From Acidimicrobiia bacterium (GTDB lineage Bacteria > Actinomycetota > Acidimicrobiia > Spongiisociales > UBA5794): DNA of 64,000 bases. Position 1 is the stretch's first letter. Each line of letters starts with the position of its first letter. A model generated the notes under the pieces. That model ran no database searches and was not told the origin of the DNA. It saw only the letters and a list, made by a program, of their open reading frames with translations. The stretch is taken from the NCBI GenBank assembly GCA_041393965.1, contig JAWKJB010000002.1:339-64338 (forward strand). The letters run 5' to 3'. The translations under genes were made by a program, and so were the position numbers. Positions 1,268 to 18,695 of this stretch are shown here, piece by piece.

Positions 1268-2391
1268 ATGGCAGTAAAGGTCCCTTACACTGGTTTAGTG
1301 CTAACGGAACGGGAACAACAGATCGTCGACTTGCTCCGACGCGATCCGCTGATGGGAACCGACGCTTTGGCCGCGACACTGGGAACTAGCCGGGCCTCAA
1401 TCAATGTGCACATTTCCAATCTTGGCAAGAAGGGCGTGATCCTTGGCCGTAGCTATGTCCTGGACGAGCGGCCCGGCGCTGTCGTTATCGGTGGGGCCAA
1501 CCTAGACCTCAAGGCTCGCAGCAAGGCTCGGGCGTCTGGCCAGACCAGCAACCCCGGCCACGGCTCGATGGCGCCGGGAGGCGTAGCACGCAACATCGCT
1601 GAGAACCTCGCGCGGCTCGGCGACCGCGTGCACCTGATCAGCATTGTGGGGCGCGACCCCATGGGCGATAATCTGCTCGACCACACCGCGGCGGCGGGTG
1701 TACGGATCGAGCACGTAGTACGGACCGATCGGCCGACTGGCACGTATACCGCGGCGTTGGACGTCGACGGTGAATTGATTGTCGCGATTGCTGATATGGA
1801 GGCGACCTCCGAGCTCGGACCGGAGCAGCTCCACAACGCACGCGACCTGATCGCAACTGCCGGGGTGCTGGTCCTCGACGGGAACCTGCGCCGCGACACC
1901 CTCGACTACGCACTCGATCTGGCCCCGGGCGTGCGCACAGTCTTCGAGCCGGTCAGTGTGCCCAAGGCGGTCGGTCTCAAGGAAGCAATCGACGCCCGGG
2001 TCTACGCCGTCACCCCCAATCGCGACGAACTTGCTGCGCTCACCGATTCGCCGACGCGCACGGACCGGCAGGTGCGCGCGGCAGCGCGTGCCCTGCATGC
2101 CCGCGGCATAGAATTGGTCTGGATCAGACTGGGCGAGCGTGGCTCGCTGCTCAGCACGACCGACCACGCCATCGAAATCCCTGCCATTCCGACCGTCGTG
2201 CAGGATGTCACAGGCGCCGGCGACTCGATGCTGGGCGCTTTCTGTCATGTGTTGCTCAAGGGCGGCTCGCCGGAGGAAGCCGCCCGATTCGGCCATGCTG
2301 CCGCCGCTCTGACCATTGCCAGTTCGCACACAGTGAGACCCGATCTGACCCCGCGCCTGGTTCAAGCTGCCCTCGACCAGAAGGAACAAGA

Positions 2392-2395
<4 letters not shown>
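1268..2395 (+). CDS. psuK: PfkB-family kinase with an N-terminal winged-helix HTH extension; putative pseudouridine kinase
   Basis: N-terminal ~60 aa HTH (EREQQIVDLLRRDPLMGTDALAATLGTSRASINVHISNLGKKG) followed by a ribokinase/PfkB fold with the GAGD motif (VTGAGDSMLGAF). Overlaps psuG by 4 nt. Confidence 0.7.
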
Positions 2396-3312
<917 letters not shown>

Positions 3313-8561: not shown

Positions 8562-8918
8562 TGCCCCGACCGGCAATGTTTGCCGCGTTGACGGCGGCCA
8601 GATGACATCGCTGGCGGCGTCCTCGTCTTCGACGCATCCCCTGATGCGCCTTCGTCTTGCGTCCTGGCCAGCCATGCCCCTGGCTCGACTTCAACATCGC
8701 CAACGAAACCGGACAGGCACGAGCGATAGCGCCGCGCTGACGAGTCCGATCGCACTGAGATGCTCGACAGATGGCAAGCGACACGGCGAACCATTCCGGT
8801 GCTCGTTCGTCGCCGGATTCGGACCGGGGCGACTGACCGCGGGGACTCCAGATTCTGCCAGTGGATCGCACAATCGGGCGACTACCCTTTGGGGTAGGGA
8901 GACGATGGGAGAGGGCCG

Positions 8919-9182
8919 ATGACCGACGAACAGCGACAGTGGGCAATCAAACGGATCAAGGAGAAGCGAGCCTTCTGGACCCACCTCGTGGTCTACGTCG
9001 CCGTCAACGCCTTCCTCGTCGCGATTTGGGCGATCACCGACCGCAGCTATTTCTGGCCGGCGTGGGTCATGCTCGGTTGGGGCATCGGTCTCGTTGCCCA
9101 CGGATTGACTGTGTGGTTCGGTCCCTCCGACATCACCGAGGAGAGGATTCAGAAGGAGCTGCGAAGGCGTCGCAGCGGGTGA
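8919..9182 (+). CDS. 2TM domain-containing protein
   Basis: 87 aa with two TM helices and a conserved W/F-rich segment typical of the pfam 2TM family. Confidence 0.6.
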   Translation: MTDEQRQWAIKRIKEKRAFWTHLVVYVAVNAFLVAIWAITDRSYFWPAWVMLGWGIGLVAHGLTVWFGPSDITEERIQKELRRRRSG

Positions 9183-9283
9183 GGTACCGAAACCGTTTGC
9201 GATGACAGACTCCTCCGATCAGCAGACCTCGCGAAATCTCTGCCTCCTCGGGGGGCAGCGGTGTGCTACGGTGATGGTGAAAG

Positions 9284-9394
9284 CCCGAGGGGCTCTGGAG
9301 AGTCGGGTTGTCCCGGCTGAGACCTCGTAAACCAGCGAGGATATCCATCGAACCTGAACCGGATCATGCCGGCGCAGGGATCGAGTTCCTCGGG
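9284..9394 (+). ncRNA. TPP (THI-box) riboswitch
   Basis: P1 CCGAGG...CCTCGG; P3 CGGGttgtCCCG followed by GCTGAGA; then GAACCTGAACCGGATCATGCCGGCGCAGGGA, matching the conserved ACCUGAUCYGGAUAAUGCCAGCGUAGGGA core. Confidence 0.85.
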
Positions 9395-9503
9395 CTTTCT
9401 TGATGAATCCGCCGCCACCGCGGCCGCTTCCCTACTTTCTCTCCCGTCCGTGGTCGCGCCTTGCTCGAGAGCCCGCTTGGTGTACGGCTTGCGATCGGAG
9501 TAG

Positions 9504-9519
9504 TTATCACATATGATAA
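9504..9519. promoter_or_regulatory. AT-rich inverted repeat TTATCA-N4-TGATAA immediately before/overlapping the start codon of the AbiEii-like gene
   Basis: Seen directly; sits in a ~40-bp AT-rich island (agtagttatcacatatgataagtatatggtccatatg). Confidence 0.4.
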
Positions 9520-9523
9520 GTAT

Positions 9524-10213
9524 ATGGTCCATATGAGTGCAACACTGAGAACGGTCTTGGCGTCGGCTGCACTGCTGCAGGAGGTCGTGCCTGACGCCGT
9601 GTTGGTGGGTGGAGCAGCTGCGGCGCTGCATGCCGGTCACCGAGACTCGTTTGATCACGACCATGTCCTTGCCGATTTGGTGGAGCGGTACGAAGCCGTA
9701 CTGGAGGCAGTCGAGGCGACAGACGGGTGGGCAACCTCAGTGCGGGCTTCGAAACCGCCGTTCACGATCATGGGCAGCTTGTGGGGTGTTGAGGCAGGCC
9801 TTCGCCAGATGCGCCGCACCCGACCGCTCGAGACCTGTGAGATTGACCTGGATGAGGGGGCGGTTGTGGTGGCTCCAACGGCACCAGAGACACTCCGTGT
9901 GAAGGCGTTTCTGGTCGTGCAACGCAATGTGGTTCGTGACTATCTGGATGTGGTGGCACTCACTGAACACCTCGGATTCGGCAACGCCGTCGAGATCCTC
10001 TCCCGGATCGACGACTACTACACGGATCGATCAAACGAGCACGGCTCAGTCCTGACCTCGCTCGTGATCGCCCTTGCTGATCCCGCACCTCGGGACAGCG
10101 AGGTGATCGGCGAGCTTCCCCGCTACAAGGGACTCAAGGAGCGATACCACCGCTGGGAAGATGTGGTCGAGCTGTGCCAAGCCCTGGCGCTTCGACTCGG
10201 TGGTGCTCTTTAA
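9524..10213 (+). CDS. AbiEii/AbiGii-family (DUF1814-like) nucleotidyltransferase-like protein
   Basis: N-terminal LVGGAAAALHAGHRDSFDHDHVL matches the AbiEii GG...HR.S.DID signature, with DHDH in place of DID; C-terminal K..F...QR...RDYLDVVAL. Stop overlaps the next start (TAATG). Confidence 0.6.
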   Translation: MVHMSATLRTVLASAALLQEVVPDAVLVGGAAAALHAGHRDSFDHDHVLADLVERYEAVLEAVEATDGWATSVRASKPPFTIMGSLWGVEAGLRQMRRTRPLETCEIDLDEGAVVVAPTAPETLRVKAFLVVQRNVVRDYLDVVALTEHLGFGNAVEILSRIDDYYTDRSNEHGSVLTSLVIALADPAPRDSEVIGELPRYKGLKERYHRWEDVVELCQALALRLGGAL

Positions 10214-10662
10214 TGCCGATCACCTTCCGCAATGTCGACGCATCACCAACCGACGATGTCCGAACACTGCCGTATGAGGCACTGGTCACCCTGGTTGATC
10301 GCGGGCTTGTTGCCGACTGGAAGCCGCTGTTTCGCGAGATGCGCCGTTCGCCGTGGGGGAAGGTGGCCCGGCGCGTCGAACACTATCTCTCATACCGCGA
10401 ACCCGATGGTGTGAGCACCCTATTTGCCCTCGCGATCGAGCATGCCCGCAGCGATGCCGAGGCCGCTGATCGAGTCGAGGTGGCCGCCCGGATTCGAAGA
10501 GCCGCTGACGACTCGGGAATCACCAACGCCGAATTCGCTCGGCTTGTCGGAACGAGTGCCTCCCGGTTGAGCACATATCTGAGAGGCACGGTCATCCCAT
10601 CGGCCTCCATGTTGGTGCGAATCGAGCGTTGCGGCGAATACGGTGACGGTGGCGACGGCTGA
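10213..10662 (+). CDS. Hypothetical protein with a C-terminal XRE-type HTH (putative cognate regulator/antitoxin)
   Basis: C-terminal ITNAEFARLVGTSASRLSTYLRGTVIPSASMLVRIE; 1-nt overlap coupling with the upstream gene. Confidence 0.55.
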   Translation: MPITFRNVDASPTDDVRTLPYEALVTLVDRGLVADWKPLFREMRRSPWGKVARRVEHYLSYREPDGVSTLFALAIEHARSDAEAADRVEVAARIRRAADDSGITNAEFARLVGTSASRLSTYLRGTVIPSASMLVRIERCGEYGDGGDG

Positions 10663-10837
10663 TGGTGCTCCCTGACGAAGTCGCCGAGCCCCGGGTCCCC
10701 GCAGCGCCCTCCGATTCCCTTCTGTGGGTGGCTCCGGTCGAACACCAACCCTCGGCAGGCGTGAGATCGAGCCGATCATCGCGAACGCCGGCGAGATGCC
10801 CCTATCCCGCCGGGTCGAGATCGAGGGATCGCATCCG

Positions 10838-11539
10838 TCAGAGCAACCACACGGCCAGCTCGGAGTCGTCGTCCGTACGGGCGCGTTGGTGTCTTGAGGC
10901 TTGGTCGATACCTTCGATGATGAGATCGAGCCCGAACTCGAAGGAGTCACCGAAGTCGTAGCCCGGTTGGAGGACATGCTCGATAGCCAGCTCTGCCAAG
11001 TGGGGATACTCGTCGAACGGCATCGAGGCTGCGATCTCCGCAGCGGCCTTTGGCAAGTCTTCACCGGCGCCAGCGCCGGGGAGCGTTGCCTCCTCGAATG
11101 CGAAGCCGTAGATGAAGCTGTCGAGAACTGCGTATGCGTGCGCGGTCAACGCGATCGATAGGCCACCTCGTCGCAGACACCCGATGACGGCGTCGTGATG
11201 CCGAAGGTTCGCCGGACCGGGGGAGGGCCCGGACTCCATCAACGGGGCGGCCCATGGGTGGCGGTTGAGGACCGCGCGTGCCGACACGCACCGCCTGCGG
11301 ATGGCCGTCTTCCAGTCCAGGTCCTCAGGCGGCAGCTCGATCTCGGCAAAGACCAGCTCGACGATCCCGTCGATGATCGCCTCCTTCGAAGGAATGTGGT
11401 GGTAGAGCGTCATCGGTGCGGTCCCGAGCACATCGGCAAGCTTCCGCATCGTGAACGCCTCAAGCCCGTGCTCGTCGGCGAGACCAACCGCCGCTTCGAG
11501 AATGAGGGTTTGGGTGAGACGCTCCTTGCTCGTGGCCAT
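10838..11539 (-). CDS. TetR/AcrR-family transcriptional regulator
   Basis: N-terminal TetR HTH (RLTQTLILEAAVGLADEHGLEAFTMRKLADVLGTAPMTLYHHIPSKEAI). Confidence 0.8.
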   Translation of the reverse strand: MATSKERLTQTLILEAAVGLADEHGLEAFTMRKLADVLGTAPMTLYHHIPSKEAIIDGIVELVFAEIELPPEDLDWKTAIRRRCVSARAVLNRHPWAAPLMESGPSPGPANLRHHDAVIGCLRRGGLSIALTAHAYAVLDSFIYGFAFEEATLPGAGAGEDLPKAAAEIAASMPFDEYPHLAELAIEHVLQPGYDFGDSFEFGLDLIIEGIDQASRHQRARTDDDSELAVWLL

Positions 11540-12768: not shown

Positions 12769-13692
12769 ATGGCGGTGATCGTCGTCGACGAGTTGACCAA
12801 GAGCTACGACGACAGGGTCGTTGTCGACGATGTGTCATTCACGGTGGAGGAGGGCGAGATCTTCGCCATCCTCGGGCCAAACGGGGCGGGCAAGACGACG
12901 ACGGTGGAATCGATAGCGGGGCTGCGCACGCCCGATTCCGGGCACATCGAGGTGTTCGGCTTCGATCCGCTTGCCGATCGGGTCCAGGTCCGGAGCCGAC
13001 TCGGCGTGCAACTCCAAGAGAGCCGTTTCCAGGACCGCATCAAGGTGCGGGAGGTCATCGAGACATTCGCCTCGTTCTAGCCCGAACCCCTCGGTGTCAG
13101 TCAGCTCCTTGACCGTCTCCGACTCGACGACAAGGCCGATACGAGGTACGCGAGACTGTCCGGGGGCCAACAGCAGCGCGTCTCGATCGCGGTTGCCCTC
13201 GTTGGTCGACCTCGCGTCGTCATCCTCGACGAGTTGACGACCGGTCTGGATCCGCAAGCCCGACGAGAAACATGGGGCTTGGTCGAAGAGCTTCGCGATG
13301 GCGGTGTGACGATCGTCCTTGTCACCCATTTCATGGAGGAGGCAGAGCGGCTTGCGGACCGCCTTGCGCTGATCGACGAGGGGCGACTCGTGGCGCTCGA
13401 CACCCCCCGCGGGCTTGTCGAGCGTGTAGGTCTGGAGCAGCGACTTCGGTTCGTCACCGCAGAGATCGTCGAGGACGCGTGGCTCGAAGCCCTCCCGGAG
13501 GTCACCGGGGTGACCCGGGCCGGAAGCGAGATCGTGGTAACCGGCAACGACAAGATGCTGTTTGCCGTTGTGTCCCTCCTTGCCGGTCGTGAGATCGTCC
13601 CCGACCGGCTCCAAGTCGACCAGCCCACCCTCGACGACGCGTTCGTCGCCATCACCGGGCGCCGCCTCGACACGGCTGAGGAGCTGTCATGA
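12769..13692 (+). pseudogene. ABC transporter ATP-binding protein interrupted by a single in-frame TAG at 13078-13080
   Basis: Walker A (GPNGAGKTT) before the stop. LSGGQQQRVSIA signature, Walker B (VVILDELTTGLDP) and H-loop (VTHFMEE) follow in the same frame. The only disruption is ...ETFASF*PEPLGV... Confidence 0.7.
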
Positions 13693-17448: not shown

Positions 17449-17490
17449 TGCGGGAGGGCTCCCTCCTCGCCAGACAGCTTCTATTATTCC

Positions 17491-17545
17491 GCCGCGGCGA
17501 TGGAGCTCGCCGAAAGCGCCCGACGGGCTGATGGCTCCTATTGAG
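17491..17545 (+). ncRNA. Fluoride riboswitch (crcB RNA motif)
   Basis: GCGGCGAUGGAGCUCGCC GAAAGCGCC CGACGGG CUGAUGGCUCC UAUUG aligns with the T. petrophila fluoride riboswitch (GGCGAUGGnnnnCGCC...AAnCnGCC...CUGAUGnnnCCU). Confidence 0.9.
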
Positions 17546-17640
17546 ACCACCCATCGAGGAGCCTCGTGTTTGAGCGGACCCGCGAACGACGACGATCTTG
17601 TACGGACCTGATCCGGCGGCTCGCGGCGCCCGGAGCGGTG

Positions 17641-17991
17641 ATGGCCGGTGGCCTCCTGGGATCGGGTCTGCGGGTGGCAGTCGTTGACCTGCTCCCGACA
17701 ACTCCGGGCCGTTTCCCGACGACCACGCTTGCGGTGAACCTCGCAGGTTCGCTCCTCGTCGGTTTCTACCTCGCTCGGCGGCAACGCGCCGTCATCGCCG
17801 AGTGGTCGCTACGGTTCTGGGCGATCGGGGTGCTCGGCTCGTTCACCACCTTCTCGATGTTCAGCGTCGAGGTGTTCGGGCTTCTCGACATGGACGCGAC
17901 TGTGGTTGCCGTCGGCTATGTCGGGGCATCGCTGCTCGGGGGCGTCGCGGCGGCGCTTGTCGGTAGACGGCTCGGAACGGTGGGCTGGTGA
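17641..17991 (+). CDS. crcB: Fluoride ion channel CrcB/FluC (subunit 1)
   Basis: 4-TM small protein with the GSFTTFSMF motif; directly downstream of the fluoride riboswitch. Confidence 0.8.
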   Translation: MAGGLLGSGLRVAVVDLLPTTPGRFPTTTLAVNLAGSLLVGFYLARRQRAVIAEWSLRFWAIGVLGSFTTFSMFSVEVFGLLDMDATVVAVGYVGASLLGGVAAALVGRRLGTVGW

Positions 17992-18338
17992 CGATCGTTG
18001 TGGCCGTCGTGGCAGGATCGGTCGGAGCTGTGGTGCGCTACGGGCTATCGGGCGCCGTTCAGCGTCGCAGCAGCTCCCTGCTGCCGCTCGGCACCGCCGC
18101 TGTGAACCTCGTCGGAGCGTTCCTGTTGGGGGTCGTCGTCGGGATCGGCGCCAGTACGCTGTGGTCGGTTGCGACGATGGGCCTCACGGGCGGCCTGTCG
18201 ACCTTCTCAACATGGATGGTCGAGACCGTCGAGCTCGGTGTCAATCCGAGGCCGACACGACGGGCCATCGTGAACCTCACGCTGATGACCGTGCTGGGGG
18301 TCGTACTGGCGGCTGCCGGTTACTACCTCGGGAATTGA
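17988..18338 (+). CDS. crcB: Fluoride ion channel CrcB/FluC (subunit 2)
   Basis: Paralogous 4-TM protein, GGLSTFSTW motif; 4-nt overlap. Confidence 0.8.
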   Translation: MTIVVAVVAGSVGAVVRYGLSGAVQRRSSSLLPLGTAAVNLVGAFLLGVVVGIGASTLWSVATMGLTGGLSTFSTWMVETVELGVNPRPTRRAIVNLTLMTVLGVVLAAAGYYLGN

Positions 18339-18350
18339 CAGGAGCACATC

Positions 18351-18695
18351 GTGGACCACGAAACTGACAATCGACTGCTCCGGATCTACATCGGAGAATC
18401 CGACACCTACGAAGGGCAGCCCCTGTATCAGGCCATTGTCGGGGCCATCCGTACGGCGGGACTCGCCGGCGCGACGGTGCTGCGCGGTATCGAGGGTTTC
18501 GGCAAGTCCAGCCACCTCCACACCGCACACATCCTGCGGCTGTCCGAGGACCTTCCGATCGTGATCGAATGCGTCGATACCGCAGACCACATCGAGGCCA
18601 TCTTCCCCGTGCTGGACGAGATGATCGGCGACGGATTGGTCACCATGGAACGAATCGAAGTCCGGACCTACCGCGCCGAACCCACCGAACCCTGA
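18351..18695 (+). CDS. DUF190 domain protein (PII-like, fluoride-regulon associated)
   Basis: LLRIYIGESDTYEGQPLYQAIV...GATVLRGIEGFG pattern. Confidence 0.7.
   Translation: MDHETDNRLLRIYIGESDTYEGQPLYQAIVGAIRTAGLAGATVLRGIEGFGKSSHLHTAHILRLSEDLPIVIECVDTADHIEAIFPVLDEMIGDGLVTMERIEVRTYRAEPTEP

Follow-up and report, generated by a model that had tools for sequence, protein, structure and literature searches.

A TPP aptamer upstream of two overlapping genes

The DNA analysed here, referred to as the window, is a stretch of 64,000 nucleotides from a metagenome-assembled genome (MAG) of an Acidimicrobiia bacterium (contig JAWKJB010000002.1). Within it, a TPP aptamer is followed on the same strand by a pair of small genes, which we call gene A and gene B. 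The features of the locus are as follows.

9265–9273, plus strand: possible extended −10 element, TGCTACGGT (TGn + TAnnnT), a low-confidence reading of the sequence only
9279–9399, plus strand: TPP (THI-box) aptamer including an extended P1, from the RF00059 match and the minimum free energy (MFE) fold
9279–9295, plus strand: P1 5′ arm, GAAAGCCCGAGGGGCUC, a 17-nt inverted repeat with 9383–9399 (pair probabilities 0.85–1.0)
9383–9399, plus strand: P1 3′ arm, GAGUUCCUCGGGCUUUC, which together with 9400–9401 ends in UUUCUU (9396–9401), so that stem and U-rich tail resemble a terminator
9400–9499, plus strand: spacer unique to the locus, with no homology to cassette copies or other loci
9489–9517, plus strand: promoter-like site TTGCGA-17-TATGAT, the sole sigma-70-like site in 8800–11000, with its −10-like box inside the palindrome
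9504–9519, no strand assigned: putative palindromic operator TTATCA-CATA-TGATAA, one per locus, directly 5′ of gene A in an AT-rich island
9524–10213, plus strand: gene A, AbiEii/MenT-family nucleotidyltransferase (putative toxin) of 229 aa, assigned from PF08843 in relatives, its motif and RefSeq naming
10213–10662, plus strand: gene B, protein of 149 aa with a C-terminal Xre-type HTH (putative antitoxin or repressor), assigned from HTH matches; its start overlaps the gene A stop (TAATG)

A THI-box at 9284–9394 on the plus strand had been proposed from the letters of the sequence, and a covariance model search (cmscan, Rfam 15) confirms both the element and its strand. RF00059 (TPP) matches at 9286–9399 over the full model (1–105) with 54.8 bits (E = 5.5e-8), only 0.5 bits over the gathering score of 54.3 bits. 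This score is low among 21 comparator aptamers (52.9–77.6 bits, median about 66), yet it falls inside the range of those that precede genuine thiamine genes. The core elements are complete (CUGAGA in J3/2, ACCUGA and GCGCAGGGA), P2, P3, P4 and P5 are well formed in the cmscan alignment, and the MFE fold of 9270–9535 recovers P1–P5 (−112.3 kcal/mol, z = −3.1). The metagenome collection contains no exact match to a 31-mer taken from P4/P5. Set against the TPP riboswitch family RF00059, the window aptamer shares the CUGAGA, ACCUGA and GCG-AGGGA cores, the P1–P5 architecture and a score over the gathering threshold, but it differs in having no thiamine gene downstream, a P1 of 17 bp and no recognisable expression platform.

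Gene A and gene B resemble a toxin–antitoxin pair

The sequence-only reading had named the two genes as an AbiEii-like nucleotidyltransferase and a protein with a C-terminal HTH, and profile searches agree on both. The gene A product itself has no direct match in Pfam (E ≤ 0.01), NCBIfam or PADLOC, and a profile search of PDB sequences returned nothing meaningful. PF08843 (AbiEii) is matched by 33 of 52 diverse relatives (34–60% identity; best E = 4.4e-11), and plasmid homologues with 34–52% identity are named AbiEii/AbiGii toxin family in RefSeq. The protein carries the nucleotidyltransferase motif VGG[A/S]-x12-DHDHV, in the window VGGA-AAALHAGHRDSF-DHDHV, which follows the Pol-beta-type pattern hG[GS] ... 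[DE]h[DE]h; across the diverse family R40 and S42 are invariant, and G29, G30, D44 and D46 nearly so. An AF2 model (pLDDT 75, pTM 0.80, residues 45–96 of low confidence) placed nucleotidyltransferase entries at the top of a Foldseek search (5uvd, Rv1045 at TM 0.48, and MenT1), none of them significant (best E = 0.034). The gene A product is predicted to be toxic. The protein search returned more than 2,600 matches in 1,087 clusters at 50% identity, so that the cassette of nucleotidyltransferase and Xre-HTH genes is widespread, and it is very highly conserved in Acidimicrobiia. We know of no experimental characterisation of such a cassette.

In gene B, residues 90–139 match HTH_31 (1.1e-7) and HTH_3 (5.7e-7) in Pfam, and the N-terminal 85 or so residues form an unassigned domain. 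NCBIfam reports a faint similarity to MqsA-family antitoxins (E = 0.0097), and phmmer against the PDB gave marginal HTH matches only. Gene B follows gene A in every copy examined, and we propose that the TAATG overlap couples its translation to that of gene A. As genes alone, the two have the generic layout of a toxin–antitoxin (TA) system: small, overlapping and co-oriented, with a palindrome at the promoter and a mobile, patchy distribution.

The pair departs from characterised TA systems in its combination of parts. Like AbiE (AbiEi/AbiEii, type IV TA) and MenAT (MenA3–MenT3, Rv1044–Rv1045), it is compact, with two genes and variable surroundings, and gene A is assigned to the DUF1814/AbiEii superfamily, with weak fold similarity, short of significance, to Rv1045 (MenT3/TglT) and MenT1. 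Unlike those systems, the partner is a C-terminal Xre-type HTH protein rather than AbiEi/COG5340, the order is reversed with the nucleotidyltransferase first, and the window protein lies under the Pfam threshold. A cognate AbiEi (COG5340, N-terminal winged HTH) is absent upstream of gene A, and PADLOC reports no AbiE match. In having the putative toxin gene first, an overlapping gene for a C-terminal Xre HTH protein and a palindrome over the promoter, the pair is like toxin-first type II systems of the HigBA/MqsRA type; it differs from them in that the toxin candidate is a nucleotidyltransferase rather than an RNase, gene B lacks significant HigA or MqsA membership, and DNA binding by its product is putative.

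Operator and promoter signals of the cassette

Directly 5′ of gene A, an AT-rich island (9490–9530, GC 0.39) holds the palindrome TTATCA-N4-TGATAA, which was found in seven of the eight loci searched (the window and six of seven MAG loci). At the eighth locus (L086) the alignment shows TTATCAGATACGATAA, which differs at one base. Conservation extends across two actinobacterial classes: the 21-nt stretch GTAGTTATCACATATGATAAG is identical in the Pseudonocardia plasmid pBCI1-2 despite only 52% protein identity. Every aligned MAG copy has an ATG or GTG start codon at the position of 9524, 6–8 nt past TATGAT and with no Shine–Dalgarno sequence (SD), suggesting that the gene A mRNA is probably leaderless. 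The gene B protein would most likely bind the palindrome TTATCACATATGATAA and autoregulate the pair. On sequence grounds, these signals demonstrate that the cassette carries its own predicted operator and promoter and would be expressed independently of upstream DNA.

Cassette copies and junctions

The cassette spans about 1.16 kb (≈9500–10662) and recurs in entirely different surroundings. We found the A+B pair in seven Acidimicrobiia MAG loci with wholly different neighbours (about 80% identity for A, 72–76% for B) and a further copy on the Pseudonocardia megaplasmid (pBCI1-2), making eight other copies in all. DNA homology between copies opens about 5 nt 5′ of the palindrome (about 9500) and tails off where gene B ends. 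Composition marks the same segment: GC3 is 0.67 in gene A and 0.68 in gene B, about 4 s.d. below host genes (0.78 ± 0.025), and host-like in the flanking 2TM (0.81), hydrolase (0.82) and TetR (0.79) genes. A decayed gene A fragment at locus L003 shows that the cassette turns over. These comparisons establish the cassette as a mobile, compositionally foreign and self-contained insert, as far as homology and composition can define one. A search for a phage origin found no relatives on viral contigs.

A multi-copy element of this kind could mislead an assembler, and the arrangement might be a chimera joined at the boundary of aptamer and cassette through short identical stretches in the cassettes of different community members. 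The cassette is indeed multi-copy across Acidimicrobiia, with a 21-nt operator stretch identical in distant taxa, and the left junction is without confirmation from an independent assembly. Against this, the stretches of identity between copies fall short of the k-mer lengths that assemblers usually end on, and the right junction, which runs from the 3′ end of gene A through gene B to TetR, recurs at 100% in an independent 1.5-kb Logan contig. Both flanks are also host-like in GC3 with the cassette alone deviating, so that two misjoins cancelling each other out would be required to produce a chimera. We regard an assembly artefact as very improbable. Exact-protein look-ups of the gene A product and the 2TM protein returned no record. 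For the upstream α/β-hydrolase, GTDB species representatives offered relatives of at most 58% identity, with no conserved PMT2/2TM/aptamer arrangement and no empty-site allele.

Aptamer and cassette occur apart

Gene A lies on the strand of the aptamer and 124 nt downstream of it, with only the weak U-tract of the aptamer itself as a terminator between. The sequence-only reading had raised the prospect that the riboswitch controls the module. Stated in full, a local co-option confined to this genome would place a promoter 5′ of the aptamer and let transcripts read through, so that TPP tunes toxin and antitoxin and the pair becomes a riboswitch-gated TA or defence module. In favour of such a co-option, the aptamer is intact, no strong independent terminator separates it from gene A, and the distance from AGGGA to the start of the open reading frame (ORF), 143 nt, is barely past the 90th percentile of genuine riboswitch–gene pairs (136 nt).

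The distribution of both elements speaks against it. None of the eight other cassette copies is accompanied by a TPP aptamer (Rfam searches to E = 0.1–1 at the seven MAG loci, a scan with the TPP-core pattern at the plasmid), and no relative of gene A or gene B lies near any of 120 related aptamers of the same P4/P5 type (725 kb). These aptamers instead precede genes for ThiC (26), TonB receptors (16), binding proteins (10), ThiD (8), ThiE (5) and ThiM (4), as well as ThiG, ThiO-like, ThiT, YkoE, CytX, ThiL and Thi4; among 100 comparator downstream ORFs, the great majority are thiamine genes or transporters. The single similar orphan, at locus L014 before a Dps gene, scores below threshold, has lost its P5 loop and looks like a product of decay. 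As an internal control, a fluoride riboswitch elsewhere in the window sits 19 nt 5′ of crcB.

The local sequence offers the co-option little more. Folding of 9400–9499 revealed no recognisable expression platform, anti-terminator or SD-sequestering structure; the cassette has a conserved operator and promoter of its own; and, because gene A lacks an SD, translation would be poor from an AUG placed internally behind a long leader. The 17-bp P1 described below should form whatever the ligand state. Regulation of the cassette by the riboswitch is thus not supported, because copies elsewhere lack the aptamer and homology between them starts only at about 9500, and we consider the co-option improbable. 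We found no riboswitch-controlled AbiEii or TA module described in the literature searched. An ORF of 37 codons at 9403–9516 was discarded as a candidate regulated gene: it has no family match, its hand-counted GC3 is about 0.57, and it overlaps the cassette operator.

The absence of a nearby thiamine gene, noted from the sequence at the outset, extends to the whole 64 kb (Pfam searches of genes in 1.3–18.7 kb; 100 TPP-linked proteins compared with the full window by tblastn). The tblastn search returned generic ABC-ATPase similarity only. No thiamine-gene remnant was found in the spacer 9400–9499 (blastx, E > 0.6), and the two gaps flanking the cassette likewise yielded no trace of a thiamine pseudogene. 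Beyond the cassette lie a TetR gene, encoded on the opposite strand, and genes for a zinc-type dehydrogenase and an ABC-2 exporter. The downstream ABC operon was rejected as a lost target: it encodes an ABC-2 exporter beside TetR, and TPP-linked ABC systems of the comparators are of the ThiXYZ type (BPD permease, NMT1 binding protein). The alternative that the module had inserted between the riboswitch and its original target holds in part. The cassette is a foreign mobile insert and the riboswitch is orphaned, but no thiamine gene or remnant lies beyond. If a target existed, it would have been lost or replaced and not displaced, because TetR, the dehydrogenase and the ABC-2 exporter follow the cassette and the gaps hold no remnant.

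An extended P1 helix

The P1 pairs first read as CCGAGG/CCTCGG exist, but they are merely part of a longer helix: 9279–9295 and 9383–9399 form 17 uninterrupted base pairs (15 Watson–Crick and 2 G–U), compared with a P1 of 7.7 ± 1.2 bp (range 5–12, n = 109) in comparator aptamers. In thermodynamic folding, which leaves out co-transcriptional kinetics and ligand effects, P1 accounts for about −25 kcal/mol against −0.3 for its canonical inner 5 bp, and the only competitor is a weak 5-bp helix. Because of this length and stability and the weakness of the competitor, P1 should close with or without TPP and looks ligand-independent, or 'locked'. Ligand-dependent switching needs a P1 of marginal stability that competes with an expression platform, and by computation the window aptamer has no such P1. 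A terminator scan flags the inner 3′ part of P1 (9381–9393 and GCTTTCTTGA), with the UUUCUU tract weak and partly within the stem. The hairpin arms were also considered as terminal repeats of a MITE-like repeated element, which was rejected as they are unique in the window and flanking direct repeats were not found.

A helix of this kind raises the prospect of a stand-alone element under selection independently of the cassette. Such an element could, in response to TPP, terminate or insulate the transcripts of the upstream 2TM/hydrolase genes, act in trans as a short riboswitch-derived sRNA, or serve as a TPP-binding RNA. Riboswitch-derived stand-alone RNAs have precedents in Listeria SreA/SreB and in EutX/Rli55, which are controlled by B12 (AdoCbl) riboswitches. 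The window aptamer is like these in having no cognate coding gene after it, and unlike them in being known from sequence alone and in a P1 that looks ligand-independent. Retention of all ligand-contacting motifs and a perfect 17-bp helix are not expected from drift, and the possible extended −10 element at 9265–9273 might, with low confidence, set a transcription start at about 9279–9281, the first P1 base; a sigma-70 consensus scan did not report this element. Weighing against a stand-alone function, searches for a second copy or an orthologue that would show conservation came back empty (no exact 31-mer in the metagenome collection, neither arm repeated within the window), the U-tract is weak and partly in the stem, the bit score ranks among the lowest of the comparators, and L014, the sole similar orphan, looks decayed. 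On balance we view this possibility as unlikely.

Discussion

The analysis establishes the identities of both elements, the independence and mobility of the cassette, the lack of thiamine genes in the window and the anomaly of P1. Our favoured explanation, which we consider probable, is the chance adjacency of two unrelated elements: a mobile TA-like cassette, and a locked orphan aptamer or hairpin of terminator-like form. The cassette would have been acquired horizontally, expressing itself without upstream DNA. The aptamer is probably left over from a thiamine locus that has lost its coding part. Its RNA would fold to a long closed hairpin, TPP bound or not, and if active at all it would most probably be a constitutive terminator-like structure.

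Two observations run counter to parts of this account. Every conserved nucleotide and helix of the aptamer is kept, unlike the outcome of long neutral decay, and the perfect 17-bp P1 suggests selection. Aptamer and gene A also share a strand at a distance of 124 nt, so that read-through into gene A is physically possible. A broader reading, in which the aptamer is a working TPP sensor that sits in the loop of a 17-bp hairpin shaped like a terminator and either gates the TA cassette or serves as a stand-alone RNA or terminator, seems to us doubtful.

If true, riboswitch control of a TA or defence module would form a new link from cofactor metabolism to growth arrest or immunity; the evidence argues against it. 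Under chance adjacency, the locus shows instead how such a false association may originate, with a mobile cassette landing beside a riboswitch, and it urges caution in regulon inference from aptamer matches in MAGs. An orphan TPP aptamer with a locked 17-bp P1 bears on how riboswitches die or are reused as terminators, and the cassette of AbiEii/MenT-type nucleotidyltransferase and Xre-HTH genes emerges as a widespread element with an exceptionally conserved operator.

TPP aptamer with an extended P1 helix

Scanning all 64 kb against Rfam 15 returned two riboswitches, one for TPP and one for fluoride. The TPP match (RF00059, window 9286-9399, + strand, full model) scores 54.8 bits (E 5.5e-8) against a gathering score of 54.3 bits, confirming the TPP riboswitch that the sequence-only reading had proposed on this strand. 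CUGAGA, ACCUGA and GCGCAGGGA are all present in the alignment, and P2-P5 are correctly paired. As the scores of 21 comparators (aptamers of the same P4/P5 type from metagenomic loci) run from 52.9 to 77.6 bits (median ~66), the window aptamer lies at the low end of their range, yet overlaps aptamers ahead of genuine thiamine genes.

P1 consists of 17 unbroken pairs between 9279-9295 and 9383-9399, of which 15 are Watson-Crick and 2 G-U, and its 3′ arm leads into UUUCUU. The longest contiguous outer helix in 109 comparators has a mean length of 7.7 ± 1.2 bp and never exceeds 12. In ViennaRNA, 9279-9410 folds at -68.5 kcal/mol, or -43.9 with the 3′ arm blocked; pair probabilities across P1 are 0.85-1.0, and all that competes for the 5′ arm is a weak hairpin of 5 bp. 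By themselves, the canonical inner 5 bp of P1 amount to about -0.3 kcal/mol, and no anti-terminator or Shine-Dalgarno-sequestering structure is evident within 9400-9499. On thermodynamic grounds, which leave co-transcriptional kinetics out of account, the RNA is predicted to close with or without TPP, and would thus resemble a constitutive terminator-shaped hairpin with the aptamer in its loop. Such a hairpin may act as a terminator; a selected stand-alone role, as terminator, insulator or sRNA, fits the intact aptamer and perfect 17-bp helix, and we consider it unlikely. The pentamers CGAGG/CCUCG are common to P1 and P3 (9286-9290, 9323-9327, 9336-9340 and 9388-9392), making it conceivable that the P1 and P3 5′ strands pair with each other, as do the P3 and P1 3′ strands; in the energy model this swap involves too few pairs to rival the 17-bp P1.

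No thiamine gene near the aptamer

Pfam annotation of genes across window 1.3-18.7 kb identified no thiamine gene. The region encodes a PfkB kinase and IndA-like protein, a glyoxalase, a 249-aa protein with no family assigned, a PMT_2 glycosyltransferase, an α/β-hydrolase, a 2TM protein, a minus-strand TetR, a zinc-type dehydrogenase, an ABC ATPase with ABC-2 permease, an MBL-fold protein, a HAD hydrolase, DUF302, and two CrcB proteins with DUF190. A tblastn search of all 64 kb with 100 TPP-linked proteins matched the ABC ATPase alone, at a generic 27-34 % identity, and blastx of the gaps 9395-9530 and 10655-10845 gave no match better than E = 0.69. The absence of nearby thiamine genes, noted earlier by eye, is thus borne out by Pfam and tblastn, and because neither gene nor remnant was found, the original target, if one existed, has been lost outright, not just moved. 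In other respects riboswitch placement in this genome follows the norm, as the fluoride riboswitch stands 19 nt upstream of crcB:

17487-17547: canonical fluoride riboswitch (RF01734, 48 bits)
17566-17991 and 17988-18338: two tandem crcB genes
18351-18695: DUF190 gene

Two candidate thiamine links were rejected. The window ABC genes form an ABC-2 exporter, in contrast to the comparators' ThiXYZ-type importers (BPD permease plus NMT1 binding protein), and the weak Phos_pyr_kin match of the PfkB kinase reflects general PfkB-fold similarity. The ABC ATPase gene (12769-13692), part of a TetR/dehydrogenase/ABC-2 exporter cluster, carries a single in-frame TAG at 13078-13080 (…FASF*PEPLG…) and is otherwise intact, with Walker A, LSGGQ and Walker B in one frame; the stop reflects either recent pseudogene formation or an error of sequencing. 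The kinase, HTH-fused, and the indigoidine-synthase-A-like gene that follows it (pseudouridine-5′-phosphate glycosidase type; 1268-3312 together) probably form a pair for pseudouridine catabolism.

To define what related aptamers control, 120 metagenomic loci were retrieved by a degenerate P4/P5 pattern and 100 first downstream ORFs annotated with Pfam. These encode ThiC (26), TonB-dependent receptors (16), solute-binding proteins (10), ThiD (8), ThiE (5), ThiM (4), ThiG, DAO (ThiO-like), ThiT and ABC ATPases (3 each), YkoE-type, CytX-type and ThiL proteins (2 each) and Thi4 (1), with no AbiEii among the 25 families listed of 37 matched. ThiC, ThiT and ThiE follow the three aptamers that most resemble that of the window. 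The AGGGA-to-ORF distance is 143 nt in the window; comparators have a median of 41.5 nt and a 90th percentile of 136 nt.

Another Acidimicrobiia MAG (JBBDWN010000021.1, locus L014, 676-783) also has a TPP-like aptamer with no thiamine gene. It scores 51.1 bits, under the gathering score, and has a deleted P5 loop; a ferritin/Dps-like gene (818-1297) starts 35 nt downstream of it, and a homologue of the window α/β-hydrolase follows at 1376-2188. TPP aptamers that are orphaned or decaying may recur in Acidimicrobiia. An Actinomycetota MAG locus fetched for synteny (L049) has an SAH-riboswitch-like match at 8970-9047 (36.3 bits; threshold 37).

A nucleotidyltransferase-HTH gene pair

Both + strand genes lie where first placed:

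9524-10213, + strand: gene A, nucleotidyltransferase, 229 aa
10213-10662, + strand: gene B, C-terminal HTH protein, 149 aa, overlapping gene A in TAATG

Gene A has no direct match in Pfam, NCBIfam or PADLOC. A protein search found >2,600 homologues; the top 120 share 79-86 % identity, come mostly from Acidimicrobiia MAGs and are all unnamed. An exhaustive HMMER search gave 1,087 clusters when grouped at 50 % identity. PF08843 AbiEii is matched by 33 of 52 diverse relatives (34-60 % identity; best E 4.4e-11), and RefSeq labels plasmid homologues (34-52 % identity) "nucleotidyl transferase AbiEii/AbiGii toxin family protein". Gene A encodes VGG[A/S]-x12-DHDHV, the minimal nucleotidyltransferase signature, whose glycines and aspartates are nearly invariant across the family. 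Foldseek with the AlphaFold model (pLDDT 75, pTM 0.80; residues 45-96 low confidence) gave weak matches only; nucleotidyltransferases, among them M. tuberculosis Rv1045 (MenT3/TglT, TM 0.48) and MenT1, rank at the top and make up nearly all those of appreciable probability. Gene B combines an N-terminal domain of ~85 aa, no family assigned, with a C-terminal Xre-type HTH (residues 90-139; HTH_31 1.1e-7, HTH_3 5.7e-7). The earlier label, AbiEii-like nucleotidyltransferase plus C-terminal-HTH protein, is therefore correct at the superfamily level. Gene A may encode a toxin. As it lacks an AbiEi partner and its gene order is reversed, the pair does not form a canonical AbiE system.

A palindrome, TTATCA-N4-TGATAA (9504-9519), occurs once per locus directly ahead of gene A in 7 of the 8 loci searched, the window and seven MAG loci; in the remaining one, L086, a single base differs. 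The 21-mer GTAGTTATCACATATGATAAG (9500-9520) is identical in Pseudonocardia plasmid pBCI1-2 (L209, 2427-2447), where the nucleotidyltransferase shares only 52 % identity. Across these two sources, one an Acidimicrobiia MAG and the other a megaplasmid from Actinomycetes, the putative operator is more conserved than the genes behind it. TTGCGA-17-TATGAT (9489-9517), the sole sigma-70-like promoter match in 8800-11000, has its -10 box within the palindrome. In every MAG copy aligned, the start codon corresponding to 9524 is ATG or GTG; it lies 6-8 nt past TATGAT, and no Shine-Dalgarno sequence precedes it. From this arrangement we infer that gene A mRNA would be leaderless and repressed by the HTH protein.

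Independence of cassette and aptamer

In all seven other copies compared (L002-L005 and L086-L088), on long MAG contigs, the two genes are adjacent and overlapping amid wholly different neighbours, and the Pseudonocardia megaplasmid has the same pair. No TPP aptamer was detected in any of the seven, whether the gathering score or E-value limits of 0.1-1 were applied, nor on the megaplasmid when it was scanned for the TPP core pattern. The 120 comparator loci (725 kb) contain no gene A or gene B relative. The pair is not tied to the aptamer, which speaks against the earlier suggestion that the riboswitch controls the module; local co-option, with the aptamer gating read-through into this one cassette, is quite improbable.

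DNA similarity among copies starts ~5 nt before the palindrome (≈9500) and fades at the gene B 3′ end; the aptamer and 100-nt spacer (9400-9499) fall outside this unit and match nothing else. No direct repeats flanking the cassette and no second occurrence of the P1 arms in the window were found, and viral contigs yielded no relatives. GC3 of the cassette genes is 0.67 and 0.68, ~4 SD under 26 host genes (0.78 ± 0.025, minimum 0.737). Both flanks are host-like, and an independent contig covers the right junction; both observations count against an assembly chimera, which we regard as very improbable. The alternative first raised, insertion leaving an orphan riboswitch, holds for a compositionally foreign cassette and an aptamer without a thiamine gene, but not for a target displaced beyond the module.

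A decayed 40-codon fragment from a second gene A copy (L003 14658-14777; 67 % identity to the C-terminal part) shows that copies are gained and lost. It lies directly upstream of a 2TM-domain gene, a small membrane protein family that also adjoins the window aptamer, perhaps by coincidence. tRNA-like fragments, in which ARAGORN finds no complete gene, directly follow gene B in L003 (11442-11504; Rfam tRNA 30 bits), L087 and L088, and a full tRNA-Gly lies 166 nt downstream of it in L086 (7464-7538); the window has no tRNA. These positions hint that the cassette often sits at the edge of tRNA-targeting islands.

The juxtaposition is probably coincidental: an AbiEii/MenT-type TA-like cassette would have been acquired horizontally, landing beside a stranded TPP aptamer that has ceased to switch, and would regulate itself through its HTH protein. 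Both elements are of known kinds, and a riboswitch-to-TA regulatory system is not supported. What retains interest is the locked, orphan aptamer and a very widespread, uncharacterised nucleotidyltransferase and Xre-HTH cassette with a highly conserved putative operator.
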